Part shown: positions 2,204-22,947 of the stretch, piece by piece
Layout of the letters: each line of letters starts with the position of its first letter
Numbering within the stretch: the first letter of the stretch is position 1
Assembly: GCA_964574655.1 (NCBI GenBank)
Contig: CAZNOH010000004.1
Span: forward strand, 66,046 to 130,045
Source: an uncultured Candidatus Saccharibacteria bacterium
GTDB taxonomy: Bacteria > Patescibacteriota > JABMPQ01 > JAQVVF01
Length of the DNA: 64,000 nt
Reading direction: 5' to 3'
Notes under the pieces: generated by a model
The model's database searches: none
Seen by the model: only the letters and a program-made list of their open reading frames with translations
What the model was told of the DNA's origin: nothing
Translations under genes and position numbers: made by a program

Positions 2204-2233
2204 TTCTTTATTAATTTAGATAAAATTTTAATC

Positions 2234-2266: not shown

Positions 2267-2377
2267 AGTTTGTGCTAATTCCTACAAGTCGTCTTAAAAA
2301 AGAGGTTCAGAAATTGTCCTAGTTTATGATATTAATCACAAACTTTTATTTGTAAATGTTTATTTTTGACATATTTT

Positions 2378-2388
2378 TGTGTTATAAT
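2378..2388 (+). promoter_or_regulatory. extended -10 promoter element (TGtTATAAT) upstream of the first giant surface-protein gene
   Basis: tgttataat lies 30 nt upstream of the ATG at 2419. Confidence 0.3.
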
Positions 2389-2418
2389 TTAAATTAGTTA
2401 TTAAAATTAATTAATATA

Positions 2419-5304: not shown

Positions 5305-5311
5305 AAACAAA

Positions 5312-8122
5312 ATGACCCTAAAAAAGATTTCTAAAAACGGTCAGAACAATAAAAAGAAAAATATGAATAATCAAGGAAAATTAGCTACGCAAACGAAAAC
5401 AAGAAGCAAGACAAAAATAATAACTGGAATCGTTATTGCTGTATTAGTGATAGTTGGATTGGGAACGGCAATCTTTTTTGCTGTAAATCCTGCTCAGACA
5501 AAAATCATAAATTTTTCAGACGAATTTCAGAATGCTGATAATCTTGTTTTAGAAGACGGAATAGCGATAAATGCGGATCAAGCAAATCTTTATACATCAG
5601 ATGCGAATTTTAGGAGACAACTTATCAGCGAAGACACAAATTTTATTTGTCCTGGCGATTTGAAGGACAAGATTGCAACAATCGAGGTAACTGGCAAACA
5701 CGCATATTCTTCTGAAGAATTAAAGCCAGATTTAGAAAATGATGTGTACCGTGAAAAACTTGGCGTGAAAATTAATGGTCAAGAGATTAATACTGATTCA
5801 AATACTGCCGAAGATATTCAATTAGTTAATTATTTTCATAATTTTCCAAATGTAAAATGGTCTCATCTTTTGCGATGGCAATCAACAAATCCCAGCACAA
5901 TGCTTGTTTTGAATAATGGCACAATAATTCCGGTATCTAAAGGAGAAACAAACATAAAAGTGGCAATCTGTGGTATTGTCAGCGAAGAAGATTTCAGCAT
6001 AAATTTAGGAGCTGATGAGGCTGAAATGCTGGTATTCAACAACATTACAGCTCTTAGTGGAATCGGAACAGCAATAAGTCTTTTTCAGGATAAATTTACT
6101 AATCATATTCTTGTTTCAAAAGAAATAACTAGTTTAGACGATAAATTCCTAGTAGCGGATAATATGGCGATAAATAAAATAGAAGGCAAGCTTTATACTA
6201 ATTTTGATAATGGAAAAAATATAAAACTTTTGTTCAGTTTTGACAATGGAGATACTTGGACATTAATTGATAATTTGATACTGCATCAAGAACAGAATTT
6301 GCTTGCTCCAGAAAAATACTTAAGTTTTTCTCAAGATATCTCTCAGGAAAATGCTCGCCATCTTCGCTGGATGGTTATTTATGAATTTAATGAAAACATG
6401 GGCGAACTTAATGATCAGCTGGATACTTCCCCATTATTGAGTGTTTTACAAGGTCTTGTAACTCCGATTTCTGGAATAGAAGTTGCAGGACAAAATAAAA
6501 AAGCAATTTTTGTCGGACCAAACAACAGCACGCAATTAAATATTGGATTACCAGCGAATGAAATTGGTAATCGCGTAGTTGCCTATTCACATCATTTAAT
6601 TAGAAATACTTCTGGAGATGGGACGCAATTTCCAACATTATTAGCAAATAATCCTGGCATCACCAATTTCCAGCAAGGATATCCTTTGGGTTTGATTAAT
6701 TCTTTTGAAGCGGCGACGATTGTTGCATTGCCAGGCAATTTAGAAATTTTAAAAATAGATTTATCAGCAACAGCTGAAGCAAAAGCAGGATGCTCTGAAG
6801 GGCAAGAATTAGTAGCTGGCAAATGCACAATTCCTTTGCCTCCGAATGGAGGAGACGCTGAACAATGCAATGATGATTTTAGATGTCCAGAAGGACAGCT
6901 CAGGCAAAGTTGCTTGAAAGAATGCTTGGGGCCGGAACCGTTGATTTGCAACAAAAGTGAAATTTTGATCAAAGATAATTGCCAGAGTGTCTTGCATAGT
7001 GAAACTGATTCTGCTCTAATGGTAAATCCAAGAATTATATACAGAGGAGACGACAGAGTTATCATATTTTGGAAAGTTGGCAAAGATGAATATAAAAACA
7101 AAGAATTACAGTTTAAATATGGAACATTTGATCCAAATAATTTGCAAAAAGATGCGGATAACAAAGTTATTTTGGAAGATTTCAATAATGCAACAGTTCA
7201 TTATAATGAAGAAGAAGACTACTATTATGCAGTCTTAAAAAATCTGAAAGGCGGAGAATTAGTTGATAAAAATGATGCTGGCTTTATAGATGGCCGAAAA
7301 CCTTATGCATTTCAAATCAGCTTAGGAGAAAATTATGCCCGACCAACAGCATTTAAAACTTTAAACAGATTTCAGACAATTCTTTACTATTATAATCTGG
7401 TATTGAGCGAGAATTTTAATTTAGAAAATTATGAACAGGTTGATGATTCGTTAAGAGGAGGCGGTTCTGCATTCTATTATAAGCCTGAAGGGCAAGAGCC
7501 TCTGAGCTTGAGAGGCGTGCATTTTACATTGCTAAATGACAGACAATACGAGGAGTTTAATAACCGAATCAGTGCAACAGCAAAGAAATACGGCAATAAA
7601 AAAACAGTGGAAGAATTATACAAACGTGTTCATGACAGAATTTATGATGATAATTTGGGCATGACTTTTGATAAAGCAGGCGTTGATTATTGGACTAAAC
7701 AAGTTGAAAGAAAAGATGATAACAGAATTGATATTTTGGGCGCGAAATTTGCAATTTCGGTCAGTCCTGAGGCAACTGGTGATATTTCAAAAATGGCGTT
7801 GAATGAACAAAAAGTAGCAAAAGCTGACTTATCCTATGAAGTTGTGCTAAGACGCGGTGGTGATCAAAAAGGCATTGAAAATCTAATGACGCTAGCAAAT
7901 ACAAAAGAAATGAGACAAAAGCTGGCGATGAGCAGAGAATACGATGATCGATTAAATTCTATCAGTGACAGAAGAGCGCAAATTGAAGAATTATACGAAA
8001 CTTTATATGCCAGAGCTGCTGATGTCGCTGGAGTGGATTATTGGGATAATACTGGAGAGTCAATACAAGAGATAAAGCGAGAATTCTTAAACAGCGCAGA
8101 CTTTTCTAGGATAACACAATAA
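5312..8122 (+). CDS. large membrane-anchored surface protein with DUF4214-like repeats and a Cys-rich module (paralogue of 2419..5304)
   Basis: 936 aa; shares N-terminal KKKNMNN...TM and C-terminal ELYETLYAR.ADV.GVDYW motifs with the upstream gene; Cys-rich stretch near aa 490-560. Confidence 0.6.
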   Translation: MTLKKISKNGQNNKKKNMNNQGKLATQTKTRSKTKIITGIVIAVLVIVGLGTAIFFAVNPAQTKIINFSDEFQNADNLVLEDGIAINADQANLYTSDANFRRQLISEDTNFICPGDLKDKIATIEVTGKHAYSSEELKPDLENDVYREKLGVKINGQEINTDSNTAEDIQLVNYFHNFPNVKWSHLLRWQSTNPSTMLVLNNGTIIPVSKGETNIKVAICGIVSEEDFSINLGADEAEMLVFNNITALSGIGTAISLFQDKFTNHILVSKEITSLDDKFLVADNMAINKIEGKLYTNFDNGKNIKLLFSFDNGDTWTLIDNLILHQEQNLLAPEKYLSFSQDISQENARHLRWMVIYEFNENMGELNDQLDTSPLLSVLQGLVTPISGIEVAGQNKKAIFVGPNNSTQLNIGLPANEIGNRVVAYSHHLIRNTSGDGTQFPTLLANNPGITNFQQGYPLGLINSFEAATIVALPGNLEILKIDLSATAEAKAGCSEGQELVAGKCTIPLPPNGGDAEQCNDDFRCPEGQLRQSCLKECLGPEPLICNKSEILIKDNCQSVLHSETDSALMVNPRIIYRGDDRVIIFWKVGKDEYKNKELQFKYGTFDPNNLQKDADNKVILEDFNNATVHYNEEEDYYYAVLKNLKGGELVDKNDAGFIDGRKPYAFQISLGENYARPTAFKTLNRFQTILYYYNLVLSENFNLENYEQVDDSLRGGGSAFYYKPEGQEPLSLRGVHFTLLNDRQYEEFNNRISATAKKYGNKKTVEELYKRVHDRIYDDNLGMTFDKAGVDYWTKQVERKDDNRIDILGAKFAISVSPEATGDISKMALNEQKVAKADLSYEVVLRRGGDQKGIENLMTLANTKEMRQKLAMSREYDDRLNSISDRRAQIEELYETLYARAADVAGVDYWDNTGESIQEIKREFLNSADFSRITQ

Positions 8123-8127
8123 GATTT

Positions 8128-8163
8128 TAAAAAAGCGGATCTTCATGATCCGCTTTTTTTTTG
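8128..8163 (+). terminator. rho-independent terminator
   Basis: Perfect 8-bp stem agcggatc/gatccgct with a 5-nt loop followed by a run of about 10 T. Confidence 0.8.
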
Positions 8164-8209
8164 TTTGAATTTGGCTTTGTTTTATTATATAATGATTTGA
8201 AGGATATTA

Positions 8210-8833
8210 TTGTATTTAAAGCTAAAAATGGCAGAAAAAAATAAAGAATTATCATGGGAAAGAGTGGAAAAATATCTGGCTGAAAAAACTGATACTGGAA
8301 ATATGATGGCACTGATTGAAACAGAAAAGCTTTTTAAAGATGCAGTAGCTGATTTTGATTTACCAGGCGATGACTTAGAAAGGCAGATAACTGCTCTAAG
8401 CTTTGTTTTTACAGATATAAGCGATTTGCATAAAACAAGATCTTTATGCAAAAAAATAACTGAAAAAACAAATTTTTCGCTGACAAAGATTGAAACAATT
8501 CGTAATCTAGAAATTTATTATCAAGCAATATCGGATCTAAAAGATTTTAGAAAGAAAAAAATATCTTCGTTCAAAAAAATAAAGATGTACTTACAAACTT
8601 TCTTGCCACAGCCAAAGATTTTTATTAGAAAATTCGTTTTAATTTTTTTGATCTTTTTTCTAGCCATTTTTTTATTAGATGCAACAAGCTTCGGAAGAAT
8701 GGTTGTTGATCTTTTTGTCTCGTTATCTCATTTAATTTTCAGCTGGGTATTATTTATTATTCTATTAATTGCTGGCATTGCAATATTAGTTGTTGGAACT
8801 ATATATTATTTTCAAGGCAGGAGAAATCACTAA
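8210..8833 (+). CDS. hypothetical protein with C-terminal TM helices
   Basis: ORF of 207 aa; a likely alternative start is the ATG at 8228 (MAEKNK...); two or three C-terminal hydrophobic helices. Confidence 0.4.
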   Translation: MYLKLKMAEKNKELSWERVEKYLAEKTDTGNMMALIETEKLFKDAVADFDLPGDDLERQITALSFVFTDISDLHKTRSLCKKITEKTNFSLTKIETIRNLEIYYQAISDLKDFRKKKISSFKKIKMYLQTFLPQPKIFIRKFVLIFLIFFLAIFLLDATSFGRMVVDLFVSLSHLIFSWVLFIILLIAGIAILVVGTIYYFQGRRNH

Positions 8834-8834
8834 T

Positions 8835-9236
8835 ATGCACAAATTTCCCACAAATTCCACAAACATGGATAGAGTTCTCTTCCCTCAATTAAGTTACCAA
8901 ATTATGGGGATTTTATTTGAAATAAATAGTAAATTGGGGACTAAATACAAAGAAATAAATTATGGCAATGCTTTAGAAATCAAATTAAAACATCTTAAAA
9001 TTCCGTACGAAAGGGAGAAGCCAGTTAAGGTTTATTTTGAAAACGAAAAGTTAGGTGATTTCTATTTAGACTTTGTAATAAATAATCAAATAATCGTTGA
9101 GTTAAAAAAAGTTTGGTCAATATCTTTTGATGATATTAAACAAGTCCTGCGTTATTTAGAAGCAACAAATTTAAAGTTAGCAATAATAGCAAATTTTAAA
9201 CACAAAAGTTTACAATACAGAAGAGTTTCGCGATAA
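8835..9236 (+). CDS. GxxExxY family protein (PD-(D/E)xK fold)
   Basis: The ATG at 8835 gives a protein of about 133 aa with the family signature (NYGNALEIKL...VELKKV); lies immediately upstream of dnaE. Confidence 0.7.
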   Translation: MHKFPTNSTNMDRVLFPQLSYQIMGILFEINSKLGTKYKEINYGNALEIKLKHLKIPYEREKPVKVYFENEKLGDFYLDFVINNQIIVELKKVWSISFDDIKQVLRYLEATNLKLAIIANFKHKSLQYRRVSR

Positions 9237-9280
9237 ATTGTTTGTGCAATTTGTGATTAATTTGTGTTAATTCGCGATTT

Positions 9281-12200
9281 ATGAGCTTTGTTCATCTCCA
9301 TACTCACAGCCACTATTCTCTGCTTGATGGCTTGCCAAAAATTGACGAGCTGGTTTTGCATGCAAAAGAATTAGGAATGGAAGCACTGGCGCTGACTGAT
9401 CATGGCGTGATGTATGGAATTGTTGAATTTTACCAAGCTTGTAAAAAAGCTGGCATTAAACCAATACTTGGCGTGGAAACATATGTTGCGCCGAATAGAA
9501 TGAGCGATAAAAGAGCACATATTGATATACGGCCATATCACTTAATTTTATTGGCGAAAAATCATGAGGGCTATCAGAATTTGTTAAAACTGATCTCAAA
9601 AGCACATGTTGAGGGCTTTTACTATAAACCAAGAATTGACTTTGAATTATTAAAAAATAACTGCAAAGGATTAATTTGTTTGTCTGCTTGCATTGAAGGA
9701 CAAATAGCTAGAGAAACTTTGACCAATATTGATAAAGCAAGAGAAACAGTTTTAAAATACCAAGAAATTTTTGGAAAAGAAAATTATTATTTAGAACTTC
9801 AACATCATCCAACCATAAAAAGACAAGGCAAAGCAAATGAAAAATTAATCTTGCTTGCAAAAGAAACCGGCGCTCCTCTGGTTGCAACCAATGATATTCA
9901 TTATTTGAAAAAAGAAGATGACAGGATTCAAGATATTTTGCTGTGCATACAATTGCAAAAGAAAGTTGATGATAAAAAAAGAATGTCAATGATGGGTGAA
10001 GATTTTTCCATGAAGCCGACAGAAGAGATGGAAAGATCTTTTATCAATACTCCAGACGCAATTTCAAATACTTTAAAAATTGCCGAACAATGCAATGTCG
10101 AAATTGAGCTAGGCAAAACTAAGCTCCCCATTTTTATCGTGCCTAAGGAATTGACTCCAATAGATTATTTAAAAAAGTTGTGCGAAGAAGGTTTGCAAAA
10201 TAGATTTGAAAAAAGCAGAGAGAGCTTAGATAAAATTATTATAGAAAGATTAGATTATGAATTATCAGTAATTGAAAAAACCGGTTTTGCCTCATATCTC
10301 TTGATTGTTTCTGATTTTGTTAATTGGGCAAAAGAAAGCGGAATAATTGTCGGCCCAGGCCGTGGCTCTGCTGCTGGCTCGCTAATCGCCTATTTATTGA
10401 AAATAACTGATATTGATCCGATTAAATATGATTTATTGTTTGAAAGATTCTTGAATCCAGAAAGAATAAGCATGCCTGATATTGATATGGATTTTGCAGA
10501 TACAAGGCGCGATGAAGTTTTGCAATACGTTAAAGGTAAATATGGCGCTGATCATGTTGCCCAAATCATAACTTTTGGAAAAATGGCGGCAAGAGCAGCT
10601 GTGCGCGATTGCGGACGCGTTTTAAGCTATCCTTATGAATATTGCGACAAATCAGCAAAAATGATTCCAATGGGGTCCACTATTTCTGAGGCTTTAAAAA
10701 TAAATCCCGAACTAACCTCTTTTTACAATAGCGATCCTCAAGCAAAGGTATTGTTCGATTCTGCCAAAAAATTGGAAGGCGTTGCTAGACATTCATCAAC
10801 GCATGCTTGCGGTGTTGTGATCACAAAAGATCCGCTTGATACTTATACTCCTTATCAATTTTCAACTCGCGGTGACGAAGAAATTACTACTCAATACGAA
10901 ATGCACGCCATTGAAGACCTAGGTCTTTTAAAAATGGACTTTTTAGGTCTGGCTAACCTTACAACTATTGAAAAAGCTTTAGAAATTATTGAAGCAGTCC
11001 ACAAAATAAAGGTTGACATTGGCAAGGTTGAAATGGACGATAAAATAACTTTTGATCTTTTGCAAAAAGCGCAAACTGTTGGAGTATTTCAGCTTGAATC
11101 TGCTGGCATGCGCAGATATTTAAAATTATTAAAACCAACAAATTTTGAAGACTTAATTGCGATGGTTGCATTGTATCGTCCAGGACCAATGGAATGGATT
11201 CCTTCCTATATTGATGGCAAACATGGGCGGAAGAAAGTCAAATATGTTCATCCGAAGTTAGAGCCAATATTGAAAAAAACTTTTGGTATTGCTGTTTATC
11301 AAGAACAAGTTTTGCAAATTGCGAGAGACTTGGCGGGCTTTACTTTAGGCGAGGCTGATGTTTTAAGAAAGGCTGTTGGCAAGAAGATCAAGGAATTGCT
11401 GGAAGAACAAAAAGATAAATTTATTAAAGGATGCGTAGCAAATGGTATAGCAGAAGAAGTTGCAAGAAAAGTTTTTGCTTTTATTGAACCTTTTGCTGGC
11501 TATGGATTTAACAGATCGCATGCTGCATGCTATGCGTTGATTGGCTACAGAACTGCTTATCTAAAATCTCATTATCCAGTGGAATTTATGGCTTCTTTAC
11601 TTACTTCTGATCAGGAAAATATGGATAGAATTGCGATAGAAATAACAGAATGCGAAGAAATGGGTATTGAAGTTTTGCAACCAGATATTAATGAAAGCTT
11701 TCCAAATTTTGGCGTGGTCAAAGAGCGTGGAAAATGCATTAGATTTGCTTTTAATGCTATAAAAAATGTCGGCTCAACAATCGCTGATGCAATTTACAAA
11801 GAAAGAAAAAAATCTGGCAAGTTTAAAGATTTTTTTGATTTTGTTAGACGTGTTAGACATAAGGATTTGAATAAAAAATCAATTGAAAGCTTGGCAAAAT
11901 CTGGAGCTCTGGATTCTCTGATTGAAAGAAATCAAGTGTTGAATAGTATTGATAAGATTCTAAATTTTTCTAAATCCATACAAAAAGAATTAGACTCTGG
12001 TCAGACTGATTTGTTTGGCAATAAAAAAGATAACGTTTCAACAATAAATTTTAAACTTGATCAAGCAGAGCCTGCCACTAAAAGAGAGCGCTTAGCTTGG
12101 GAAAAAGAATTATTGGGCCTCTATGTTTCCGAACATCCTGTTGATGAGTACAAGGATTATTTAAGTGCTGTTGCAATCCCAATTAGCCAACTAAATATAA

Positions 12201-13205: not shown

Positions 13206-14343
13206 ACACATGAATTTAGGCAAAGTTGGACCATCCCGTTCGCCATATAAAATAATTTTTGTTTTTGGGATTATCAGTTTTCTAGTGCTTGTTTTTGTTT
13301 TTTATACTTCTTTTTCTAAAGCGAAAATAACTTTGAATTTGCGAAAAGAAAAAATTGATACTACTTTTGAGATTGCTGTTGGCAAAGATAAAATTAACGC
13401 TACATCTGTTAGCGGTAGGTTTGTTGAAAAAGAAGTTGCAGGTTCTGATGAAATAACTGATATTAAAGAAAAAAAAGTAGATGATTTTGCTTCTGGCAAA
13501 GTTACAGTTTTTAACAAACAAAATAAAGCATTAACATTAGTTGCGTCTTCACAATTAAAACCTGAGAATTCGGAAATAATCTTTAAAACAACTGGGCCTT
13601 TAATTTTAAAACCAAAAGGCAAAGTTGAAATGAAAATTGTCGCCGGACAAAAAGGCGTTGCTGGTAATTTAACGCCTACAAAATTTACTTTTGTAAAACT
13701 TTGGCCAGGATGGAAAGATTTAGTCTATGCTGAAAATAAGGAGGAATTTACTGGAGGCGAAAAAACTGGCAGAATTGTTTCTGAAGAAGATATAAATAAT
13801 TTAAGAACAAAAATAGTTGATGATTTGTTTGCTAAATTTTTTGTTGATATAAAAAATGAGGAAAAAGACAATGAAGAACTCTGGGATCAATTATTCAAGA
13901 AAGAAATTTCTGGCTTTAAGACGTCAGCTGATGCAAGTGAAGAAGCAGATAAATTAAAGGCTGATTTAAAATTAAAGATTACAGGAGTTTTGTTAAATAG
14001 AGAGATGCTAGAAAATCTAGCAATCGCAAAGTTAAAAGGACAAATTATTGGCGAAAAAGAATTTGCAAAGCTTGATGATGATAATTTTAAAGCTGAAATA
14101 ATTGAAATGAATCCGCAAAAGAACCAAGCAATTTTCAAAATATCTTGCTCGGCTTTTTTAAAACCAATATTAGCTAAAGAAGCATTGGATAAAGAAAAAA
14201 TTACAGGATTAAATTATGATGAAATAAAAACTTATTATAAAAAATATCAAGAAGATATAGAGAGTGTTGATGTTTTTTTCTCGCCTTTCTGGCAGAAAAC
14301 AGTGCCAGGTGGAAATGGAAATGTGGAAATAGTTGAGGAATAA
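13195..14343 (+). CDS. hypothetical membrane-anchored protein
   Basis: 382 aa; N-terminal TM helix; no family recognised. Confidence 0.45.
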   Translation: MIFKHMNLGKVGPSRSPYKIIFVFGIISFLVLVFVFYTSFSKAKITLNLRKEKIDTTFEIAVGKDKINATSVSGRFVEKEVAGSDEITDIKEKKVDDFASGKVTVFNKQNKALTLVASSQLKPENSEIIFKTTGPLILKPKGKVEMKIVAGQKGVAGNLTPTKFTFVKLWPGWKDLVYAENKEEFTGGEKTGRIVSEEDINNLRTKIVDDLFAKFFVDIKNEEKDNEELWDQLFKKEISGFKTSADASEEADKLKADLKLKITGVLLNREMLENLAIAKLKGQIIGEKEFAKLDDDNFKAEIIEMNPQKNQAIFKISCSAFLKPILAKEALDKEKITGLNYDEIKTYYKKYQEDIESVDVFFSPFWQKTVPGGNGNVEIVEE

Positions 14344-14365: not shown

Positions 14366-14400
14366 AGAGGTCCGACCTCCAGCTAGGAGGTCGGACCTCT
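14366..14400. terminator. GC-rich perfect hairpin between convergent genes (bidirectional terminator candidate)
   Basis: agaggtccgacctcc-agcta-ggaggtcggacctct is a perfect 15-bp stem, sitting between the + gene ending 14343 and the - gene ending 14451. Confidence 0.55.
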
Positions 14401-14450
14401 ATGAAAACAAAAAAACCTAAAATTTTATTTTTAGGTTTTTATATTTTTAA

Positions 14451-15986
14451 TTATTGTCTTGGTTTCAGCTTTCTAGCATGTCGTTCAAGAATCTGTTGTA
14501 TAGCTTCTGGAAATTCGTTAAGTGATCTTGGAACAATACTCTGCGGACCAAAGTGGTATTTAACCATTTCTGGAATACCTTGCTCTGAAGTAATGGCTGT
14601 TCCTTCCATTGGACCAAATTGTCTTGCTTGTTCAACTGCATCTTTTGTATCTGCACTTTGGGTCGTACTATCAGTTATGTCAATAATCAAAGATCCAACT
14701 CGATCTGCTTCGGCACGCAAAGTTTGAATTCTTTTGCGCAATCTTGGCACCGCTGCCATAATAGCTTCAGCATCTTTGTTTTCTCCGCCAAAAGCTTCAA
14801 GCATTTGCACAATCCTTGATTTTGTTTTGCCATCGAATGATTCCTTAAATCCTTTGATTTGATATCTTAAATCAGTCGTAACATTGCCCTGATCATTGGC
14901 AAGAATTTCAACTGTAATATTATTCTCTTTTGCAGCTTCACAAATTGCAATACAGGCTTTGACGGCATTTTGAATTCTTTGTCTATCCTGATACATAGAA
15001 CCGCTGACATCAATCAATAGTTGCAAAGCTAAAGCTGTTTCTTCAGGATGTTCTCTTTTGCCCATTGGTTTTTCATGTCCTGATCCGGCTCGCATGATTC
15101 TTCTTCGTTCAGAATATCGTCCGCCTTTCCTACCCCATTCAAGTCCTGGATCTGTAACTTTTGGCACAAATCTTTTGAATGCCCTTTTTAATTGATCGGT
15201 GATTGGTCGAACTTCAGCGCTTAAGGCATTATATTTTTCACGCATTTCTGGAGTATCAAATTGATCGCGAGTTTTTAGAAGCTCATACTTTTCCCCTGCT
15301 AGTATCGCTGCATTTTCTGCATTTTTTTCGGCATCAGTCTTAGCTTGATCAGCTTTTTGTTCTAGTCTTTGTTGATGTACTTTTTTAAATTTATCAATAA
15401 TCCTCTTTAATTCTGGCGGCCACTTGTCAGTATTATTTGGATCTAATGGCTCTCCAGGCTCGCCTGGTTGTCCCCCCTTGCCTTTGCCCTTACCCTTTCC
15501 TGGTTTGCCTTCTTCTTTTTTTGGTGGGAATTGATCAATCAATCTTTTTTGGGCTGGCCAAATCGTATCTACAAATAATTTTTCTACTTGAGGCATTACT
15601 TTTAAAGCTGGATTGGTTGCATCTCCGGTAATTCTTCTTAAAGTTGGTTCAACTGCTTTAAATTCTTTGGCAACTTCTGGGTGCAATTTGTCTATTGACC
15701 AAGGCTTTGGAGTGTCCTTTAAATCATTAGCATAAACATTCCATAATGCTTCTAGTTTTAGAATAAATTTGAATTGCTCAGCAGGTTGCATCTCGCCAAG
15801 GCCTTTGGCAATGCTTGGAATAATTAATAATCTATTTTTTGCAAACATTTGTTCTCTTTCATTTGCATGCATTGGACCGCCGACTAGCCTTTCCATTCTT
15901 GGATCTTCGACGCAATTAACTAGGCTCATGATTGCACCTTCATCATATCCTTGCTTGCGAGCTAGTGTTCTTAATCTCTCAAACAT
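14451..15986 (-). CDS. von Willebrand factor A domain protein, CbbO/NorD-like (portion downstream of an in-frame TGA)
   Basis: MIDAS motif DVSGSM within a C-terminal VWA domain; Gly/Lys/Pro-rich linker (GKPGKGKGKGKGGQPGEPGEP); same frame as 16011..16394. Confidence 0.75.
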   Translation of the reverse strand: MFERLRTLARKQGYDEGAIMSLVNCVEDPRMERLVGGPMHANEREQMFAKNRLLIIPSIAKGLGEMQPAEQFKFILKLEALWNVYANDLKDTPKPWSIDKLHPEVAKEFKAVEPTLRRITGDATNPALKVMPQVEKLFVDTIWPAQKRLIDQFPPKKEEGKPGKGKGKGKGGQPGEPGEPLDPNNTDKWPPELKRIIDKFKKVHQQRLEQKADQAKTDAEKNAENAAILAGEKYELLKTRDQFDTPEMREKYNALSAEVRPITDQLKRAFKRFVPKVTDPGLEWGRKGGRYSERRRIMRAGSGHEKPMGKREHPEETALALQLLIDVSGSMYQDRQRIQNAVKACIAICEAAKENNITVEILANDQGNVTTDLRYQIKGFKESFDGKTKSRIVQMLEAFGGENKDAEAIMAAVPRLRKRIQTLRAEADRVGSLIIDITDSTTQSADTKDAVEQARQFGPMEGTAITSEQGIPEMVKYHFGPQSIVPRSLNEFPEAIQQILERHARKLKPRQ

Positions 15987-16010
15987 TGCAAATTGAGAAA
16001 ATTCAGCGTG

Positions 16011-16394
16011 TCATCGTTCATGCAAAATTTCTCCGCGCAAAAAACTTCTTGGAGCTTGACCTGCAGCATAAACAAAAGGAACACCAATTAAATATGTTTT
16101 TCTGGCTGGATCATCAACTACTTCACCTTTTTGAGTAACTCTTTTTGCTGGCACTTCAGCGCAACAAAAAGTATCTAAGTCAGGATCAGTATAGATTTCG
16201 ACATTTCGATCTGTAGTTGTTGCATAACGTTCCATTTCCAGCAATAAAGCTTCAGTTTGCTCTGGCCTTGCTGTCTCTGCGCGCGTTTCCATTTCTTGTC
16301 TAAAAGCATCTGGATCGCCCAGCTCTTGGAATTGAGGTCTTCTTTCAAATGAATCTAAATATGGCATAAAATTAATAATACGTAGGGGGCACAA
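16011..16394 (-). CDS. N-terminal segment of the VWA protein, separated from 14451..15986 by a single in-frame TGA
   Basis: Same reading frame as the downstream VWA ORF; read-through would give ...GEILHER*HAEFSQFAMFERL... Confidence 0.5.
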   Translation of the reverse strand: MCPLRIINFMPYLDSFERRPQFQELGDPDAFRQEMETRAETARPEQTEALLLEMERYATTTDRNVEIYTDPDLDTFCCAEVPAKRVTQKGEVVDDPARKTYLIGVPFVYAAGQAPRSFLRGEILHER

Positions 16395-16423
16395 AATCTT
16401 GTGCCCCTACAAAATTTAATTAT

Positions 16424-18304
16424 CTACGCTGTCTCGCCAAGCGTCTTGTCAATCAATTCTTCTAAAGCTTTTAAGGTCACGTCTAAACCTTCAATTGGAT
16501 TTTTTCTAAAATCATCCATAACTTCCAAATATGCTTTGCGAACATCGCCAGTATTTTTGTAAGCTTGAGTAACGGCAATTGTATCGCGCATACTGACACC
16601 AATAATATCCATACCGCCAGCTCTTCTTTCATAATATTTTCTCCAAGCATCGGCGATTCTTTCGATATCGCGAAGATCTGTAAGGATTTTTGTAGAATGC
16701 TCTTTTACATTATCGCTAACTAAATTTTTGAGGTTTTTATTTTTTTCTAAATCTGCTATTTTTCCTCCTTGAGTTGTTTCATTAATTATGACATCCCAAA
16801 GCAATTCAAATTCAGTGTCAGAGAGATCAGAAAATTCATTGAATTGTCCGCGCAAAACTGATACTTCGTCGCATACATAATCACGCAAAGAATTATCTTC
16901 TGCTTCTTTTTGAGCTAAGACGGCATCTGACCATTTTTCTTTATGTTTTTCAAATTCTCCCTTTCTCAATGCTGGATATTCCATGACAACTGCTTGACCT
17001 CTTGTTCTGGAAAGCAAGGCTTGGCCGATATCTCCGGCTGAGCCATAAGTTGCAGGATTGCCGGCAATGATAATGACAACTCCTTCAGCAACTGGAATAT
17101 GAACTCCATCATAATTCAAGCTTCTATTTTCATCACCAAGTCCATGAAGCATTGCTTGGACTTCTGGCTTTAAGGCATTGACTTCATCAATAAAAACAAT
17201 AGCGCCTGGAGTTTGAACGCCTTCGGCAAGATCAGTTAAGAATTTTTTTGTGCCTTCTTTTGAATCAAATTCATAATGAACAACAAGCTCAATTGATTCC
17301 ATGCCTCGAGCGCAAGGAAACCAAAAATAAGGACGATTGGTATTTCCAGCAATATGGCCTGCTGCTTCGTTTTTTCCTGTTCCAGCCTCGCCAATAATTA
17401 ATGTCAGACCTTTATTGCTTTTTAGTTGAGTATCTAAAGCTTTTACTATTTTTTCTAGTCCTAATATAAAAGTTGGAAATTCTTTAATGCTTTTTTTTAT
17501 TTTTGGCACTCTTTCTTTAGCATCGCCTCTTGTACTATTCAATACTACTAGCTGGCTTAACATTTCAGCAATCTGTTGAGTTAATTCTTCTTGATTAATT
17601 GAATCGCGCTTGAAACCTCTAGTTCTTTCAGAGACAGTTTCTATAGCATTTTCAACTTTATCAGCCAAAATATGAGGCGTTTCACCTTTGCCGCGTCTAA
17701 ATTTATTTTCCTCGCGTAAAATTGCTAAAATTTGTTTTCTGGCATCTTTGTCTCCTTGGGCAGAAAGTACTGACAATTTTTCGTAGTCATCAAAAATTTG
17801 TTTAGCAACTTTCCATTCATTTAAGGTAAGTGTATTTTCGACTGGCTCTAATGTTCTTCCTTGCTCTTCAACAGTTTTGCCAGGTTTGTATTCTCTATTG
17901 CGTCTTTTGTATGTAACAGCAACTTCGCTGCCATTTTGTGTTGCTTTGACTTGCCATCTTGGATTATCATGCGCGCCTGTCCAAATCAAATCTTCATGGC
18001 CTCTCAACCATTCTGGGATATTGGCTGGTGCTTCTTCTTTTCTTTCTGCTTGTTCGCCTCTGATTATTGGCGGTTCGTACTGTTCAAGCGGTGCCATTAA
18101 TTGATCAAAAACTTGAGCGAGAGATTTTCCTGAGACATCAATCTCGCCAATTTTTGTACCTTGTGGCATCATTAGTTGCATGCCTAATTCTTCGCCTAAA
18201 TCTGTACAATATTTTGTTTTTAAGCGACTTAATTCTTGTCTTAATTCGTCTGGAGTTAATTCTCTTTTAGGATCTTTTTCTAATGGTGCTTTTTCTACTG
18301 CCAT
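16424..18304 (-). CDS. AAA+ ATPase of the MoxR/CbbQ/NorQ (AAA_5) class with a roughly 300-aa N-terminal extension
   Basis: Walker A GEAGTGKN, Walker B VFIDEVN and an ALLSRTR sensor; block resembles CbbQ (IVFIDEVNALKPEVQAMLHGL...IIIAGNP). Confidence 0.8.
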   Translation of the reverse strand: MAVEKAPLEKDPKRELTPDELRQELSRLKTKYCTDLGEELGMQLMMPQGTKIGEIDVSGKSLAQVFDQLMAPLEQYEPPIIRGEQAERKEEAPANIPEWLRGHEDLIWTGAHDNPRWQVKATQNGSEVAVTYKRRNREYKPGKTVEEQGRTLEPVENTLTLNEWKVAKQIFDDYEKLSVLSAQGDKDARKQILAILREENKFRRGKGETPHILADKVENAIETVSERTRGFKRDSINQEELTQQIAEMLSQLVVLNSTRGDAKERVPKIKKSIKEFPTFILGLEKIVKALDTQLKSNKGLTLIIGEAGTGKNEAAGHIAGNTNRPYFWFPCARGMESIELVVHYEFDSKEGTKKFLTDLAEGVQTPGAIVFIDEVNALKPEVQAMLHGLGDENRSLNYDGVHIPVAEGVVIIIAGNPATYGSAGDIGQALLSRTRGQAVVMEYPALRKGEFEKHKEKWSDAVLAQKEAEDNSLRDYVCDEVSVLRGQFNEFSDLSDTEFELLWDVIINETTQGGKIADLEKNKNLKNLVSDNVKEHSTKILTDLRDIERIADAWRKYYERRAGGMDIIGVSMRDTIAVTQAYKNTGDVRKAYLEVMDDFRKNPIEGLDVTLKALEELIDKTLGETA

Positions 18305-18346
18305 AGTTTTAAAAAATTATTTTATATGAATTATTATATCATTTTT

Positions 18347-19501
18347 CTATCTTTCATGCTTGCCAAACCGATCATCAAACACAAGATTCCTTGAATTTTG
18401 GATAATATCAAGCTGTTCTTTTGTTAAATCTTCTTGTTTCAAGCCTGTAAGATAAACTTTTTTTGGACGATTGGTAAAATATTGCAAAGCTTGGACAGAA
18501 ATTCTTTCAAGATTAATAAAACTTAATCCTGCGTTACTTTCACTTAAAGCTTCAGCAACTTTGTCATCAATTTTTTTGAAACTATCAAAAGATAGTTGAC
18601 CAGAATATTCTTTGAAACCTTTTGCTGCTTCAACGCTTATTGACTGCATTACTGTGAAATCCAAACCATTCTTGCAACCAGCAAATTGAGCAGCAGCTTC
18701 TCTAGAAATTTTTGTCAATGCATGAAAATTAAGAAATTTTCCAAGGATTGAATTAACTTTGATGAATCTAGCTAATTCTCGAGTAATATCTTCTGGCAAA
18801 TCCGTCAGACCAATCTTTAACGCCATCCCATTAAAATCACCTAGCTCTTTTGCAGTTTCTTGATCAATTTTTGTTAAATCTGGCAGACTAATTATTCCGC
18901 CAAAATCGACAAAAGCATGGGCCTGCTCTTTTGATAAAGATGTAAGACCAAGACCAATCTCAACTCTATTTTTTCCTTCAATCAAAGCTCTGATGGTATT
19001 TACTGGCATTTTTTTTATTCCTCGAAAATATAAAGGTCCTTGATGTTTTACTAATTCTTTTGCAGAAGCTTCTGAAAGACTGTTTAGGCTATCAAGATTT
19101 AAATTGCCATGATGATTCGGAATCATTCTTTTGATCATTCTTTTTGCGATTTGATTGGGAAGAAATGTTAATCTCCGGATATCTCTATCATCAAAATTCC
19201 TACCAGTAGAAATCTTTTCATAAATTTCAAAATTTGTTTTTCGGGCTGGAATATCTTTTACTTCCTGAACGGTCATTTCTTCACCATAAAAATTTACTCT
19301 AACCTGCGATAAAGCTTGGTCTAATTTATCAACTGCTTCTTGATGAATAGGCGCGTCTGCTTGGATTGCTTCGGATATTTCATCAACTTGATCGATCGCT
19401 TGATTCAGAGCATCCGTTTTGGAAATTTCAAGAGAACCACTAGAATATTTTCCTGGCTCTGTTGCATCAAAAGTTTTTTCGGATAATTGTTCCTTGCTCA
19501 T
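18347..19501 (-). CDS. paralogous repeat protein (conserved N-terminal module plus LRR-like repeats), family member 1
   Basis: Shares N-terminal motifs (E..D..EPGK...LEI..T..L...IDQ...) and 22-24-aa C-terminal repeats with the four genes upstream. Confidence 0.55.
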   Translation of the reverse strand: MSKEQLSEKTFDATEPGKYSSGSLEISKTDALNQAIDQVDEISEAIQADAPIHQEAVDKLDQALSQVRVNFYGEEMTVQEVKDIPARKTNFEIYEKISTGRNFDDRDIRRLTFLPNQIAKRMIKRMIPNHHGNLNLDSLNSLSEASAKELVKHQGPLYFRGIKKMPVNTIRALIEGKNRVEIGLGLTSLSKEQAHAFVDFGGIISLPDLTKIDQETAKELGDFNGMALKIGLTDLPEDITRELARFIKVNSILGKFLNFHALTKISREAAAQFAGCKNGLDFTVMQSISVEAAKGFKEYSGQLSFDSFKKIDDKVAEALSESNAGLSFINLERISVQALQYFTNRPKKVYLTGLKQEDLTKEQLDIIQNSRNLVFDDRFGKHER

Positions 19502-19508
19502 ATTTTTG

Positions 19509-20573
19509 TTAGGATAATTGTTTTTTGGTTGCTTCCGAAAAAATCAGCATATTAAGAAAAAACTGTCTGTCTGGGCTTGTCTTAAGAAATTGAATAATAT
19601 CATCATCTAATTCATTAATGCGTTGCAAAGAGATTGTGACTGGCTGGGTTTTTGAAAACTTTTTCAAAGTTTCAAGATCAATTCTTTCTAAGGAATATAA
19701 ATATAAAGGGTCTTCACGCTCTGCTAATTTTTCTGCTAAACCTGGCGTAATAGCCTTTATTTCTAAATAAAGCTGGCCTTTAAATTTTTCTAATTCCGAA
19801 ACTGCGTCAGGCTGGATCTTATCAAGACCATAAATAGTCAAGTGAGTTCCCGAAAAATTAGCTATTGAGGCTGCAACTTCTTTTGTTAGATCTTTAATGC
19901 CGTATAATTCTAAATCAGGAGTTTTGATTGAAGCAAGGTGTTGCACGACTGTTTCATCTAGTTCTTTGCTAACAACAAGACGCAACTTTTTTCCCTCATA
20001 GGTCGAGAGTATTCTTGCTTGATGTTCTGACAATTCAGAAAGACCAAAATCCAATTCTCCTTCATGTGCTACAAGCTCTTGCAAGGCTTGCTCTGACATT
20101 TTTTTAATACCACATAAATGCAATTTCAAAGGTAAATTGCTAGGTCTTTCTCCATCAGCTTCTCTCCAATATTCTTCGCTAGTTGCAACATGTTTTAGAT
20201 GCTTGATCATTGCTGAATTTATATAAGTTAATTGTCGTGTCACAGCATCAAAAATGCCAGATCTAAAAGTTTTATCCTGAATTCTTTGCCAGATTTCTTT
20301 ATTTTTTTCTAAATCTGGAATTTGTCTATATTCTCCAACAGTCATTTCTTCTCCGAAAGCAGTAATTTTTAATTGCTCTAAACTGCTTTCTAGATCTAAA
20401 ACTTCTTGAGCTGTGACATTCTGATCTCTTTCTATTCTTTCTGCTAAATCACTTGCTTGATCAATAACTTGTCTGAGCTCTCTTGTTTGGACAATTTCAA
20501 AACCATGGCCTTTTTCTTTTCCTGGCTCGTTAATATCGGCTATATTTTCATGAAGCTGTTCTGGATTTGGCAT
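19509..20573 (-). CDS. paralogous repeat protein, family member 2
   Basis: N-terminus MPNPEQLHENIADINEPGK...; C-terminal L..L...A..L....G.L.L.GL repeats. Confidence 0.6.
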   Translation of the reverse strand: MPNPEQLHENIADINEPGKEKGHGFEIVQTRELRQVIDQASDLAERIERDQNVTAQEVLDLESSLEQLKITAFGEEMTVGEYRQIPDLEKNKEIWQRIQDKTFRSGIFDAVTRQLTYINSAMIKHLKHVATSEEYWREADGERPSNLPLKLHLCGIKKMSEQALQELVAHEGELDFGLSELSEHQARILSTYEGKKLRLVVSKELDETVVQHLASIKTPDLELYGIKDLTKEVAASIANFSGTHLTIYGLDKIQPDAVSELEKFKGQLYLEIKAITPGLAEKLAEREDPLYLYSLERIDLETLKKFSKTQPVTISLQRINELDDDIIQFLKTSPDRQFFLNMLIFSEATKKQLS

Positions 20574-20575
20574 TA

Positions 20576-21271
20576 TTAATTTTTAAATTTGGCAATTTGT
20601 TTTTTGAATTTATCAGGACAGTAGATTTTTCCTTCGAATTTGCTTAAAGATTTAGCTGCCTCATCTGACAGCTCAGTCAAACCTTGTATGGAAAGATTAA
20701 AATGATATACTCCTTCAAAAAGTTGGGCAATATCGGCTGGAATTGCAGTTAGGCCGTCTAAGAGAAGCAAGTTTTCTACTCCTGTTTCTAGATTTTGACG
20801 CAAGCGTACAAGCTCTTTAGCAGATTCAAAAGATAATGATTTTAGACTATGCAAATTTAATTTACATTTTCCGTCTATTTCCACGATCCCTCCGTGTTCA
20901 CTTAATATTTTAGCAAGTCCTACTGGAAGATAAGTTAAAAAAAATGACATCCTCTCAACAGTTAGATATTCATGAGACATTATTTTTTGAAAAAGTTTAG
21001 TATTCTGTTGCCTGTCAGGAATTTGTCTTATTTCATCCATTGTTAATTGGTCGCCGTAAAAATCAATTTTCATTCTATTCAAAGCACTATCTAAATCTAA
21101 AACTTCTTGCGCTGAAACATTTTCATCTCTTTCAATTTTTCCTGCAAGATCATTAACTCGTTCAACTATTTTTTCTAATTCCGAAGTTCTGGCAATTTCA
21201 AGACCAGCTTCTGTTTTTGCAGGCTCTTCGATGTCGGCTAAATTTTCATGAATTGGTTGTTCTGGTTTCAT
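20576..21271 (-). CDS. paralogous repeat protein, family member 3
   Basis: N-terminus MKPEQPIHENLADIEEPAK... Confidence 0.6.
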   Translation of the reverse strand: MKPEQPIHENLADIEEPAKTEAGLEIARTSELEKIVERVNDLAGKIERDENVSAQEVLDLDSALNRMKIDFYGDQLTMDEIRQIPDRQQNTKLFQKIMSHEYLTVERMSFFLTYLPVGLAKILSEHGGIVEIDGKCKLNLHSLKSLSFESAKELVRLRQNLETGVENLLLLDGLTAIPADIAQLFEGVYHFNLSIQGLTELSDEAAKSLSKFEGKIYCPDKFKKQIAKFKN

Positions 21272-21284
21272 TTTGTTTTACTAA

Positions 21285-21833
21285 TTACCAAAGCGGTGAA
21301 TAAATATATCCGCCTGGCACTTTTCTATCTTTAAGAGCCTCTTGAACTTCTTTAGTTTGCATTTCAAAAAATAAGCTTCCAAAATTAATGTTGCCATCAT
21401 GATAAGCTAAAGCTTTTGCTGAATCTACTGAAAGCGTGATAACTGAAAGACCGATATCGCCTTTATGCTTTTTGGCAAGATGTCTTGCTAATATAGCTGG
21501 CAAGTCAACAAGCCTCTGGATGCTACTATAATCATTATTATCCATGTCTCGCAAAATTTTAAGATTTCTTTTATAATCTGGCATGCTTCTTAATTCTTCT
21601 AATGTCATTATTTCGCCATCAATATCGATTTTAAGTTGGTCAAGCGCTTTATTTAAAGCTATTACTTGCTCAAATTTAACTGGCTCATCTTGCTGGATAG
21701 CTTCTGCTAATTCATTTGCTTGGTCAACTAATTTTTCTAATTCCGGAGTTTTGGCAATTTCAAGTCCGCCTGCTGGTTTTGCTGGCTCTTTGATGTCGGC
21801 TAAGTTTTCGTGAAGTTGTTCTGGATTTGTCAT
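21285..21833 (-). CDS. paralogous repeat protein, family member 4 (short)
   Basis: N-terminus MTNPEQLHENLADIKEPAK...; start codon overlaps the stop of the upstream gene by 1 nt. Confidence 0.6.
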   Translation of the reverse strand: MTNPEQLHENLADIKEPAKPAGGLEIAKTPELEKLVDQANELAEAIQQDEPVKFEQVIALNKALDQLKIDIDGEIMTLEELRSMPDYKRNLKILRDMDNNDYSSIQRLVDLPAILARHLAKKHKGDIGLSVITLSVDSAKALAYHDGNINFGSLFFEMQTKEVQEALKDRKVPGGYIYSPLW

Positions 21834-22735
21834 TATTTTTTGGTTTTAAAATAATCTATTTGCTGTTGTAAATTATCTGGAACATAAATATTTTCTCTAC
21901 GACTAAATATTTCGGCGGCAGAGTCAGATATTGATCCGAGACGATTAAAAACAATATCACCTTGATGATGACTTAGATGTTCTGCTACAGCATCAGAAAT
22001 TGATGTAACATTAAGAACAAGCATGCCTTGATGATGGCTTAGATGCTCTGCAGAAGCATCCGAAAAAATATCGAGTCTAACAAAATAGATATCACCTTGA
22101 TGATGACTCAAATATTCAGCTTGTTTGTCAGATAAAGTGGTAATACCAAGTGCTAGATTATCTTTGTGATGGCTTAAATGTTCGGCAGAAATATCAGATA
22201 AAGACTCTACCTCTCCCAAGCCGATAAACCCTTGATGTTCGCTCAAATAATTAGCAGACTGATCCGACAAAGAAGTCAAAGCGCGAAAATGCAAACTACC
22301 CTTGTGTTGACCAAGATATTTGGCAGCTGAATCTGGTAAAAATTCAAGCTTCTGGAAATCAATTGTATTGGGATTTTTGCTCAAAGTTTCTGCTGCAAAA
22401 TCGGTTAGAAAAGTTAATGCCTGTTCACTGTAAAGCTTGCCTGCTTGTATCCCCCTTAACCTAGGCAAATTTTTTTCTAAATCGGGAATATTTTTTACTT
22501 CGGCAACTGTCATTCTTTGTCCGCCAACATCAACTCTTAGTTGTCCTAAAGCTTTATCTAAATCCAAAACTTCTTGAGCAGTAATGTTTTCATCTTTTTC
22601 CATTCTCTCGGCTAAACTTTTTACCTCATCAATGATATTTTCTAATTCCGGACCAATGGCAACCTCAAGACCAGCTTCTGGTTTTGCTGGCTCTTTGATA
22701 TCGGCTAAATTTTCGCTGAGTTGTTCTGGTTTCAT
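21833..22735 (-). CDS. paralogous repeat protein, family member 5
   Basis: Start taken at MKPEQLSENLADIKEPAK (22735); the longer ORF in the track reads into the structured leader; five clear HLSHHQG-type repeats. Confidence 0.6.
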   Translation of the reverse strand: MKPEQLSENLADIKEPAKPEAGLEVAIGPELENIIDEVKSLAERMEKDENITAQEVLDLDKALGQLRVDVGGQRMTVAEVKNIPDLEKNLPRLRGIQAGKLYSEQALTFLTDFAAETLSKNPNTIDFQKLEFLPDSAAKYLGQHKGSLHFRALTSLSDQSANYLSEHQGFIGLGEVESLSDISAEHLSHHKDNLALGITTLSDKQAEYLSHHQGDIYFVRLDIFSDASAEHLSHHQGMLVLNVTSISDAVAEHLSHHQGDIVFNRLGSISDSAAEIFSRRENIYVPDNLQQQIDYFKTKK

Positions 22736-22747
22736 TTTTGTTAATAA

Positions 22748-22821
22748 TGTCATCCTGAACCGCGGTGAAGGATCCCGTGACAAAAAGATAACAACGGGAT
22801 TCTTCGCTTCGCTCAGAATGA
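22748..22821 (-). promoter_or_regulatory. GC-rich structured 5' leader upstream of the paralogue array
   Basis: Nested imperfect inverted repeats (gtcatcctga...tcagaatgac; ggatcccgt...acgggattc) 12 nt upstream of the start codon, overlapping the SD-like AGGA. Confidence 0.4.
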
Positions 22822-22947
22822 CAATTTTATTTTGCTGTTTTGTTTATTTTAACAAATTATTAGATTTTGGACAAACAGGAATTGATTTGAAATAATCTTG
22901 TAAATCTGTTAATCTGGCTATATACTTATAGAATTTAAATAAAACTC

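Follow-up and report, generated by a model that had tools for sequence, protein, structure and literature searches.

A MoxR-class ATPase, a VWA protein with a HExxH motif and a diversifying family of repeat proteins are linked in Patescibacteria-type genomes

Pairs of MoxR-class AAA+ ATPases and von Willebrand factor A (VWA) proteins are widespread, and their mechanism is known for a few dedicated clients, such as RuBisCO and nitric oxide reductase (NOR). The known pairs each mature one dedicated client, and for NorQ/NorD, in which a NorQ hexamer works with one NorD, a mechanism has been described together with its parallel in Rea1 (PMC13036017). MoxR ATPases have also been connected with variable proteins, both in the MoxR-vWA ‘ternary’ conflict systems, which possess a diversifying third component (Kaur, Burroughs, Iyer and Aravind 2020, PMC7159879), and as neighbours of retroelement targets that were proposed to be antigen sensors (Dore et al. 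2024, PMC10907252). Here we analyse a 64-kb stretch of contig CAZNOH010000004.1 (the window), in which a tight, co-directional set of minus-strand genes at 14451-22735 encodes five tandem paralogues with a common N-terminal module (the N-module), followed by an ATPase of the AAA_5 type and, last, by a VWA protein with a metal-ion-dependent adhesion site (MIDAS). The original prediction, made from the letters of this stretch, saw in the block a new module that ties a family of repeat proteins to an ATPase/VWA pair. The comparisons reported here support that view, the corrections being anatomical only, and we propose, at a probability of roughly 0.55, that the block is a conserved three-component system and a variant of the MoxR-vWA ternary systems.

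Linkage of three protein families across related genomes

A profile of the ATPase was used to scan 185,579 species-representative genomes, which gave 7 full-length loci, five of them in genomes titled Peribacteria or Peribacteraceae; a scan of metagenomes supplied 21 further ATPase loci, and contig look-ups added more. The fetched loci were translated and searched with hidden Markov models (HMMs) for the three families, yielding 30 independent loci. This analysis revealed between one and eight N-module genes directly beside the ATPase gene in 25 of the 30. The original prediction had suggested asking whether the N-module recurs next to AAA_5/VWA pairs in other genomes, and it does so repeatedly: a gene for the VWA partner (hereafter HExxH-VWA, after a motif in its N-terminal domain) was found adjacent to the ATPase gene, in the same cluster, in all 18 loci with enough flanking sequence. 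Among the loci without an N-module call, L049 and L058 end at or inside the ATPase gene, L057 ends inside the VWA gene, and the near-identical contigs L045 and L046 carry an N-terminally truncated leucine-rich repeat (LRR) gene in the slot of the N-module gene. Since gene order varies between loci, N-module genes standing ahead of the ATPase gene in some, between the core genes in others and downstream of the VWA gene in yet others, inherited synteny alone cannot account for the association.

A close relative, L005, is syntenic with the window, its locus likewise lying between genes for threonyl-tRNA synthetase (ThrRS) and DnaE, and possesses two paralogues where the window has five. Between these two genomes the core proteins are about 80% identical, whereas paralogues that are positional orthologues (among them P5 of the window, which corresponds to a 388-aa gene in L005) share 42-45% identity. 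The ratio of nonsynonymous to synonymous substitution (dN/dS) between the two is 0.39 for the paralogues and 0.11-0.18 for the core, so that the description of the repeat proteins as a diversifying family holds up.

The system is so far known only from Patescibacteria-type genomes, mostly labelled Peribacteria, and those ATPase homologues that carry a name come from Patescibacteria, Peribacteria or Paceibacterota. Its distribution is narrow, with about 50-60 clusters at 90% identity for each core protein among 5.8 billion. One of the surveyed loci stands apart in its coding: in L057 (Ga0247841_10015333, positions 5794-9426) in-frame TGA occurs seven times in the ATPase and HExxH-VWA genes, each time at a conserved Trp position, and other genes on that contig, for example SAM (S-adenosylmethionine) synthetase-like and LexA-like genes as judged from their sequences, also have in-frame TGA; this suggests that the L057 organism reads TGA as Trp.

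A shared N-terminal module with variable C-terminal domains

Over their first ~100 residues the five tandem paralogues (P1 to P5; Table 1) show pairwise identities of 33-52%, and the N-module HMM matches them with E values of 1e-45 to 1e-49, in agreement with the five paralogues first recognised. A sixth, P6, matches at E = 1.9e-31, bringing the total in the window to six; it lies ~35 kb away from the tandem array and has on one side an RmuC-like gene and on the other a gene for a UvrD/AddB-like helicase-nuclease of 966 aa, whose start it overlaps by 17 nt. An unlinked copy (P0251) exists in a relative's genome as well.

A search of 1.84 billion representatives with the N-module profile found 138 proteins of 36-465 aa in which the module occupies residues 1 to ~105, the sole exception to this N-terminal position being P0167, a protein of 1269 aa with internal partial matches. 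The module begins with an acidic, disordered tail and continues with a short strand and with two helices on either side of a conserved Asp, a beta-hairpin following in most members, and its most conserved positions among 134 sequences are E25, D49, G73 and E80 (P3 numbering). The paralogues match no described family in Pfam, NCBIfam, PADLOC, PHROGs or the PDB sequences, a match of this kind being an outcome that the original prediction had named as evidence against itself. In all six paralogues of the window, residues 1-25, read directly from the sequences, carry a net negative charge and contain no hydrophobic stretch, and we therefore take these proteins to be cytoplasmic.

An AlphaFold 2 (AF2) model of P1 has a predicted local distance difference test score (pLDDT) of 89 and a predicted template modelling score (pTM) of 0.80, with pLDDT above 94 in the repeat region. 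From the N terminus it runs through a disordered acidic tail (residues 1-20), a short strand, two helices, a beta-hairpin and three short helices into seven helix-strand units spaced 22-23 residues apart, that is, into tandem units of the length and strand/helix make-up (20-30 residues) that define an LRR solenoid. The best Foldseek matches of the model are the Nogo receptor, a repebody, TLR9, the Leptospira protein LIC10831, SHOC2 and internalins, with LegL1 also listed, at modest significance (E 2e-3 to 0.3, TM score about 0.4). The LRR-like character first ascribed to the repeats is therefore borne out in the predicted fold of P1 and not in Pfam, where, as in NCBIfam, no LRR family matches the paralogues at E <= 0.1; our label ‘LRR-like’ accordingly refers to the modelled solenoid. 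As read from the sequence, the helix segment of the P1 repeats (SD..AE.LSHHQG) is near-constant and the strand segment variable.

Behind the module, 118 of 125 C-terminal regions fall into one cluster of LRR-like repeats. Repeats of the type LTxLSDxAAExLSKHxG also occur in a few proteins that lack the N-module. Other relatives combine the module with different folds. In L055 a gene at 4899-6146 encodes a weakly matching short N-module followed by a seven-bladed WD40 region (Pfam 5e-72), and in L056 eight tandem short-form module genes (2134-12141) include several with helical repeats of ~30 residues (GLAGLDSERAWAMREKLLAEG); further C-termini in divergent loci are globular domains without assignment. 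Where the loci diverge most, no more than the first half of the module can be made out, comprising the acidic tail, the acid-bearing strand and the helix-Asp-helix element.

A third kind of variation was found in L001, where a 122-nt repeat closes both of the N-module genes that flank the VWA gene and occurs a third time beside a reverse transcriptase gene (Table 1). Of the mismatches in the two variable repeats, 19 of 19 and 23 of 24 are at adenines of the template, which is the signature of a diversity-generating retroelement. These features are found in L001 only; within the window no reverse transcriptase was detected by tblastn. In L003, a Peribacteraceae genome, a reverse transcriptase gene (580-1647) situated ~8 kb upstream of the system shares 44-46% identity with the one in L001.

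The core proteins and the layout of the block

Residues 302-433 of the ATPase match Pfam AAA_5 (6.6e-17, above the cut-off), as do all 23 family members examined. The Walker A motif reads GEAGTGKN, and G305, G308, G310 and K311, together with E374 and N416, are invariant across homologues. The regions on either side, residues 1 to ~295 and ~440 to 626, match no curated family; in this the AAA_5 assignment and the large extension without recognised domains agree with what had been read from the letters. Since full-length homologues, which form 59 clusters, are all 600-680 aa long, the N-terminal extension belongs to the family. A profile of the family matches solved CbbQ and NorQ chains among the PDB sequences (CbbQ 5c3c, 1e-11; NorQ 9qh4, 4e-11; CbbQ 6l1q, 2e-8), and it is on these matches that we base its affinity to CbbQ and NorQ. 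The CbbQ-like C-terminal block that the original prediction had added to this kinship was not recovered, none of the 23 members matching Pfam CbbQ_C even at E <= 1. No classical client (RuBisCO, NOR, CO dehydrogenase or gas vesicle genes) lies beside the locus in the window, L001, L003 or L005.

The VWA partner required a larger revision. It had been called as a protein of 511 aa starting at 15986, at a distance of 437 nt from the ATPase gene, and it is at this junction that the ‘seven genes with 1-45-nt gaps’ of the original description fail. The 437 nt are the 5' part of the VWA gene: a 127-aa open reading frame (ORF) at 16011-16394 is in the same frame as the 511-aa ORF at 14451-15986, with a lone TGA between them (...GEILHER-TGA-HAEFSQFAMFERLR...). 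In three other loci the homologue is one unbroken protein of 643-675 aa, with HERGH, HEQGH or HELGH where the window has the TGA. Because the two pieces are in frame, a single TGA separates them and the homologues are unbroken, we take the VWA gene to span 638 codons. Its HExxH motif falls at codons 116-120, where the window reads HER, the stop and H; the orthologue in L005 has CGT GGA CAC against CGA TGA CAC in the window, with a single G-to-T change at the stop. Of the relatives surveyed, none with the standard code has a stop at the Gly site of HExGH. We also considered whether TGA might be read through by an alternative genetic code or recoding, and rejected it: TGA ends 5 of the 42 large ORFs in the window, DnaE (1150 aa) and other long genes contain no internal TGA, and this is the only site in the window at which a lone TGA joins two large in-frame pieces.

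Homologues of the HExxH-VWA protein form 52 clusters, none with a precomputed Pfam domain. H116, E117, G119, H120, E154, D155 and E159 are invariant across 46 homologous sequences, and so are the MIDAS residues D457, S459 and S461 (of the DVSGSM motif), N535, D537 and D571, with S572, T573 and T574 conserved in at least 90%. The MIDAS motif of the original prediction thus stands, while the length given there does not. In an AF2 model of an intact orthologue (pLDDT 86.6), a five-stranded sheet (residues 54-97) is followed by the helix that bears the HExxH motif (107-123), by further helices, one of which (143-162) carries the invariant acidic residues, by a disordered linker rich in Gly, Lys and Pro (286-308), by a helix of 50 residues and by a C-terminal VWA domain (448-640). 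The VWA fold is evident in this model. Pfam scores remain below the cut-offs (VWA_2, 21.6 bits against 27; VWA, 16.5 against 23.8), and VWA_2 is matched weakly by 39 of the 46 homologues; the domain is closest in kind to those of Midasin/Rea1 and NorD. With its invariant HExxH motif on a helix behind a beta-sheet, the N-terminal domain appears zincin-like in motif and predicted topology, and E154, D155 and E159, on the next helix but one, are candidates for a third metal ligand.

Table 1. Positions of the features discussed (window coordinates unless a locus is named)
Feature	Position	Strand	Description
Leader hairpin	22748-22823	-	~74 nt imperfect inverted repeat, GTCATTCTGAGCGAAGCGAAGAATCCCG...CGGGATCCTTCACCGCGGTTCAGGATGAC; 12 nt upstream of the P1 ATG
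Paralogue P1	21833-22735	-	300 aa; N-module and ~7 LRR-like repeats of 22-23 residues
Paralogue P2	21285-21833	-	182 aa; N-module and ~2 repeats
Paralogue P3	20576-21271	-	231 aa; N-module and degenerate repeats
Paralogue P4	19509-20573	-	354 aa; N-module and degenerate repeats
Paralogue P5	18347-19501	-	384 aa; N-module and degenerate repeats
MoxR-class AAA+ ATPase	16424-18304	-	626 aa; AAA_5 core at residues 302-433
GC-rich hairpin	16382-16410	-	in the 56-nt ATPase/HExxH-VWA spacer; z = -5.1
HExxH-VWA gene	14451-16367	-	638 codons; one in-frame stop in the window
In-frame TGA	16011-16013	-	at the invariant Gly codon of HExGH; GGA in the orthologue
AT-rich hairpin, then U-run	14404-14447	-	likely intrinsic terminator of the block
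Perfect GC hairpin	14366-14400	unassigned	15 bp, 5-nt loop; between convergent genes
Paralogue P6 (unlinked)	57432-58271	-	279 aa; N-module and LRR-like repeats
122-nt repeat copies (L001)	13717-13838, 17361-17482, 17824-17945		two in N-module genes, one beside the reverse transcriptase gene
Reverse transcriptase gene (L001)	18422-19402		

The remaining junctions are as tight as first described, with an overlap of 1 nt between P1 and P2 and then gaps of 13, 2, 7 and 42 nt up to the ATPase gene. The probable start of P1, as judged from its paralogues, is the ATG that begins MKPEQ and not an upstream TTG (22783).

The structured leader seen upstream of P1 is indeed a stable hairpin (minimum free energy -36.5 kcal/mol, z = -4.6), present in one copy in the window. 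Since it is missing from all 58 fetched related loci, it does not belong to the conserved make-up of the system, and its candidacy as a conserved regulatory element is unsupported. Its inverted repeat (GTCATTCTGAGCGAAGCGAAGAATC...) resembles a palindromic element of many bacterial genomes. At the other end of the block, the perfect GC hairpin is present as originally reported, within a two-hairpin region of z = -10 in which, on the transcript, the AT-rich hairpin with its U-run comes before it. The GC hairpin was not called by a terminator scan because no T-run follows it, and the AT-rich hairpin is likely to be the real terminator of the block.

A further hairpin lies between the two core genes, and L005 has one in the same place (~11905-11970, z = -5.0) whose sequence is unrelated to that of the window. 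In line with a complex of one NorD on a NorQ hexamer (PMC13036017), the hairpin of the window may reduce how much VWA protein is made for each ATPase, and attenuation or processing at this point may set the ratio of the two subunits.

The higher G+C content noted for the block is real and small (0.365 against 0.336 in the rest of the window). It is confined to codon position 1 (0.526 against 0.434), with G+C at codon position 3 (GC3) lower in the block (0.226 against 0.265), so that it reflects amino-acid composition, the block proteins being high in Glu, Asp, Ala and Gly. A foreign origin deduced from G+C is rejected on these grounds and on the synteny of L005, and neither GC3 nor the shared ThrRS...DnaE neighbourhood gives any sign of recent import. 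Elsewhere, the most G+C-rich stretch of the window (48552-49901; 0.44, GC3 0.48) has long ORFs overlapping on both strands and no Rfam match at the gathering threshold.

Proposed mechanism, rival readings and described systems

The three families are linked, the key residues of the core are invariant, and the third family is modular, multi-copy and fast-evolving. It is very probable that the three components act together. In the mechanism we propose, the core would consist of the MoxR-class ATPase and of a protein in which a zincin-like HExxH domain is joined by a flexible linker to a MIDAS-bearing VWA domain, and the ATPase hexamer would hold one such subunit through the VWA domain, as in NorQ6-NorD1. 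The third component would be provided by one to eight cytoplasmic proteins, each with the common ~100-aa module followed by a ligand-binding domain, usually a solenoid of 22-23-residue LRR-like repeats and, in relatives, a WD40 domain, helical repeats or a C-terminal domain hypermutated by a retroelement. The N-module would plug these interchangeable binding proteins into the motor, the MIDAS site gripping a conserved acidic residue for which E25, D49 and E80 are candidates; such docking of the module as a handle, drawn by analogy, is offered tentatively. Binding of a ligand by the repeat domain would then lead to an ATP-driven pull or twist on the handle that remodels the complex and exposes or activates the zincin domain, which in turn could cleave the sensor, its cargo or a downstream target.

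The fast turnover and hypermutation of the third component argue for recognition of changing targets, such as phage, host or competitor proteins, and the system would then serve in conflict or surveillance in the manner of the MoxR-vWA ternary type. We put this forward as a possible role, not yet the probable one. The pattern of a conserved core with a diversifying, partly hypermutated binder is the same as that on which conflict roles have been predicted elsewhere (PMC7159879, PMC10907252). A fuller version, in which the ~100-aa module is an unrecognised MIDAS docking handle, like those of Rsa4 and Ytm1 in principle, and brings LRR, WD40, helical-repeat or lectin-like receptors, duplicated or hypermutated, interchangeably to an AAA+/zincin engine, as a compact and modular means of recognition and cleavage for immunity or host sensing in ultra-small episymbionts, unlike the described ternary systems, appears doubtful as a whole.

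Several observations weigh against the proposal. The N-module matches no solved structure, and because it resembles neither the ATPase nor the VWA protein the docking role is inferred from the architecture. A homotypic adaptor, in which the module would be a copy of a domain of one of the core proteins, found no support at hhalign probabilities of 0.4% (ATPase) and 1.5% (VWA protein). Matches to the short module of the most divergent loci are weak, with E values of 1e-6 to 8e-3. Likewise, the N-terminal domain of the HExxH-VWA protein matches no peptidase family in Pfam, and all matches listed in a fold search with the whole model are VWA domains, leaving this domain without an assignment, so that ‘zincin-like’ stands for the invariant motif and the predicted topology. 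PADLOC defence models gave marginal matches, all at E >= 0.011. In the window and L005 the locus occupies a stable housekeeping neighbourhood, with no signs of mobile elements and no GC3 anomaly, a setting less typical of defence islands. Finally, the core VWA gene of the window itself is interrupted by the in-frame stop.

The LRR-like proteins may alternatively be the clients of the core. The N-module would then be a pro-domain or chaperone handle, the ATPase/VWA pair would fold, assemble or release its bearers, and the zincin would clip off the handle to leave mature binding proteins, for example for the attachment of an episymbiont to its hosts. Such a scheme would follow the precedent of pairs that mature one dedicated client (PMC13036017); an acidic, disordered N terminus before a conserved module resembles a removable handle, the VWA partner is fused to a peptidase-like domain, and the fold matches of P1 include the LRR solenoids of internalins, LegL1 and the Leptospira protein. 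The main difficulty is that one core would have to serve up to eight clients of unrelated folds (LRR, WD40, helical and hypermutated). The cleavage site is moreover undefined, and the acidic N-termini of the six paralogues, free of hydrophobic segments, leave a surface location unsupported. We consider maturation of this kind unlikely.

The N-module proteins could also be exchangeable substrate receptors that feed endogenous proteins to the AAA+/peptidase core as part of housekeeping. F-box proteins, which are divided into FBXL, FBXW and FBXO according to the partner domain, offer a parallel for one N-terminal docking module combined with LRR, WD40 or other domains, and the repeat pattern L.L..L.SLSD..A..L resembles, on reading of the sequence and with no model matched, the cysteine-containing class of LRRs. 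The stability of the locus between ThrRS and DnaE in two genomes, as well as purifying selection on the core genes, would suit a housekeeping function. Its very narrow distribution would not, nor would a copy number that changes from two to five between close relatives, and hypermutation by a retroelement fits changing foreign targets better than fixed endogenous substrates. This makes endogenous substrate delivery rather improbable.

A further possibility, independent of how the system works, is that it is a decaying relic in this particular genome, the nonsense codon having inactivated it and the paralogue array now drifting. The TGA falls on an invariant codon of the catalytic motif, TGA is a real stop in this genome, and the public protein collection holds only the 511-aa downstream piece of the VWA protein (P0061). 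There is, however, just one lesion, a G-to-T change relative to the orthologue. dN/dS, averaged over the whole divergence from that orthologue, is low in both pieces, at 0.18 in the upstream and 0.11 in the downstream one, against 0.16 in the ATPase and 0.21 in ThrRS. The purifying selection seen in both implies that the lesion is recent, a minority variant or an assembly error, and an error of consensus or a minority variant is possible in a metagenome assembly. All seven other genes are intact. If the stop is real, the strain has no intact peptidase motif and could make the VWA part from the ATG at 15986; in this genome there would thus be either an assembly error or minority variant, or a strain that makes a VWA protein without the peptidase domain. 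Decay of the whole system seems correspondingly improbable. Chance adjacency of unrelated genes is effectively refuted, the three families standing together in all 18 informative loci at identities of 41-80% and in shuffled order.

Returning to the three-component system, its constant partner is a fast-evolving family of binding proteins with one handle and not an enzyme, and a domain resembling a protease forms part of its VWA subunit. Should the MIDAS be the docking site of the handle, the system would provide a simple three-protein model for the coupling of MoxR motors to variable sensors, would link the mechanisms of NorQD and Rea1 to the predicted ternary conflict systems, and would make a candidate for a conflict or recognition system of Patescibacteria, a group that in the papers considered here appears only as a threat to other bacteria or as linked to retroelements. 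The analysis also adds two families new to curation, the N-module and the HExxH-VWA protein, neither of which has a curated match, and corrects a public gene model in which the VWA gene is split and represented by its 511-aa piece only.

Compared with described systems, the HExxH-VWA protein shares the overall layout of NorD, in which a long flexible linker connects the N-terminal domain to a VWA domain at the C terminus (PMC13036017). Unlike NorQ/NorD and CbbQ/CbbO, the locus has no NOR or RuBisCO client nearby, its ATPase possesses an N-terminal extension of ~295 aa and lacks CbbQ_C, its partner protein bears an invariant HExGH motif, and a multi-copy N-module family is the constant third partner. 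Literature searches found no account of LRR proteins that accompany AAA+ ATPases in Peribacteria, and none that connects MoxR with DUF2201 or a metallopeptidase domain. The paralogues resemble LRR proteins in the helix-strand solenoid of the P1 model and differ from them in a repeat of 22-23 residues that matches no Pfam LRR.

The likeness to Rea1, which works with Rsa4 and Ytm1 in eukaryotic ribosome assembly, is one of working principle. The MIDAS of Rea1 grips an N-terminal handle of the WD40 proteins Rsa4 and Ytm1; here a ~100-aa handle would precede C-terminal repeats, and the L055 relative has a WD40 propeller after the module. In contrast to Midasin/Rea1, motor and MIDAS domain reside in separate proteins, and the fold predicted for the N-module, largely helices with a single hairpin, is not the ubiquitin-like one of the handle of Rsa4 and Ytm1; homology of the handles is unsupported.

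With the ternary conflict systems (PMC7159879) the block shares a MoxR and vWA core and a diversifying third component, and the peptidase domains that are frequent there have a putative counterpart in its zincin-like domain; some of those systems are coupled to diversity-generating retroelements, as is the relative L001. The N-module, however, is not VMAP or VMAP-C, iSTAND or FtsH, nor a beta-propeller or tetratricopeptide-repeat protein with a membrane segment, and the putative peptidase domain lies N-terminal to the vWA domain, whereas effectors follow the vWA domain in the ternary systems. The locus thus departs from the four described types in two defining features, the nature of the third component and the position of the effector relative to vWA. 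No member matches the Pfam models of the ternary systems, save for a weak hit to bpMoxR at 0.024. The same study makes no mention of Patescibacteria, and its sole reference to the candidate phyla radiation is where this group is left out of one statistical test.

The systems of Dore et al. (PMC10907252) likewise place a MoxR ATPase beside a retroelement target whose N-terminal extension contains no known domain. The window differs from them in its lineage, Patescibacteria, in a vWA partner that carries a HExxH domain, and in using paralogue expansion of LRR-like proteins without a reverse transcriptase, whereas in L001 the likeness extends to two retroelement targets that carry the N-module beside the ATPase.

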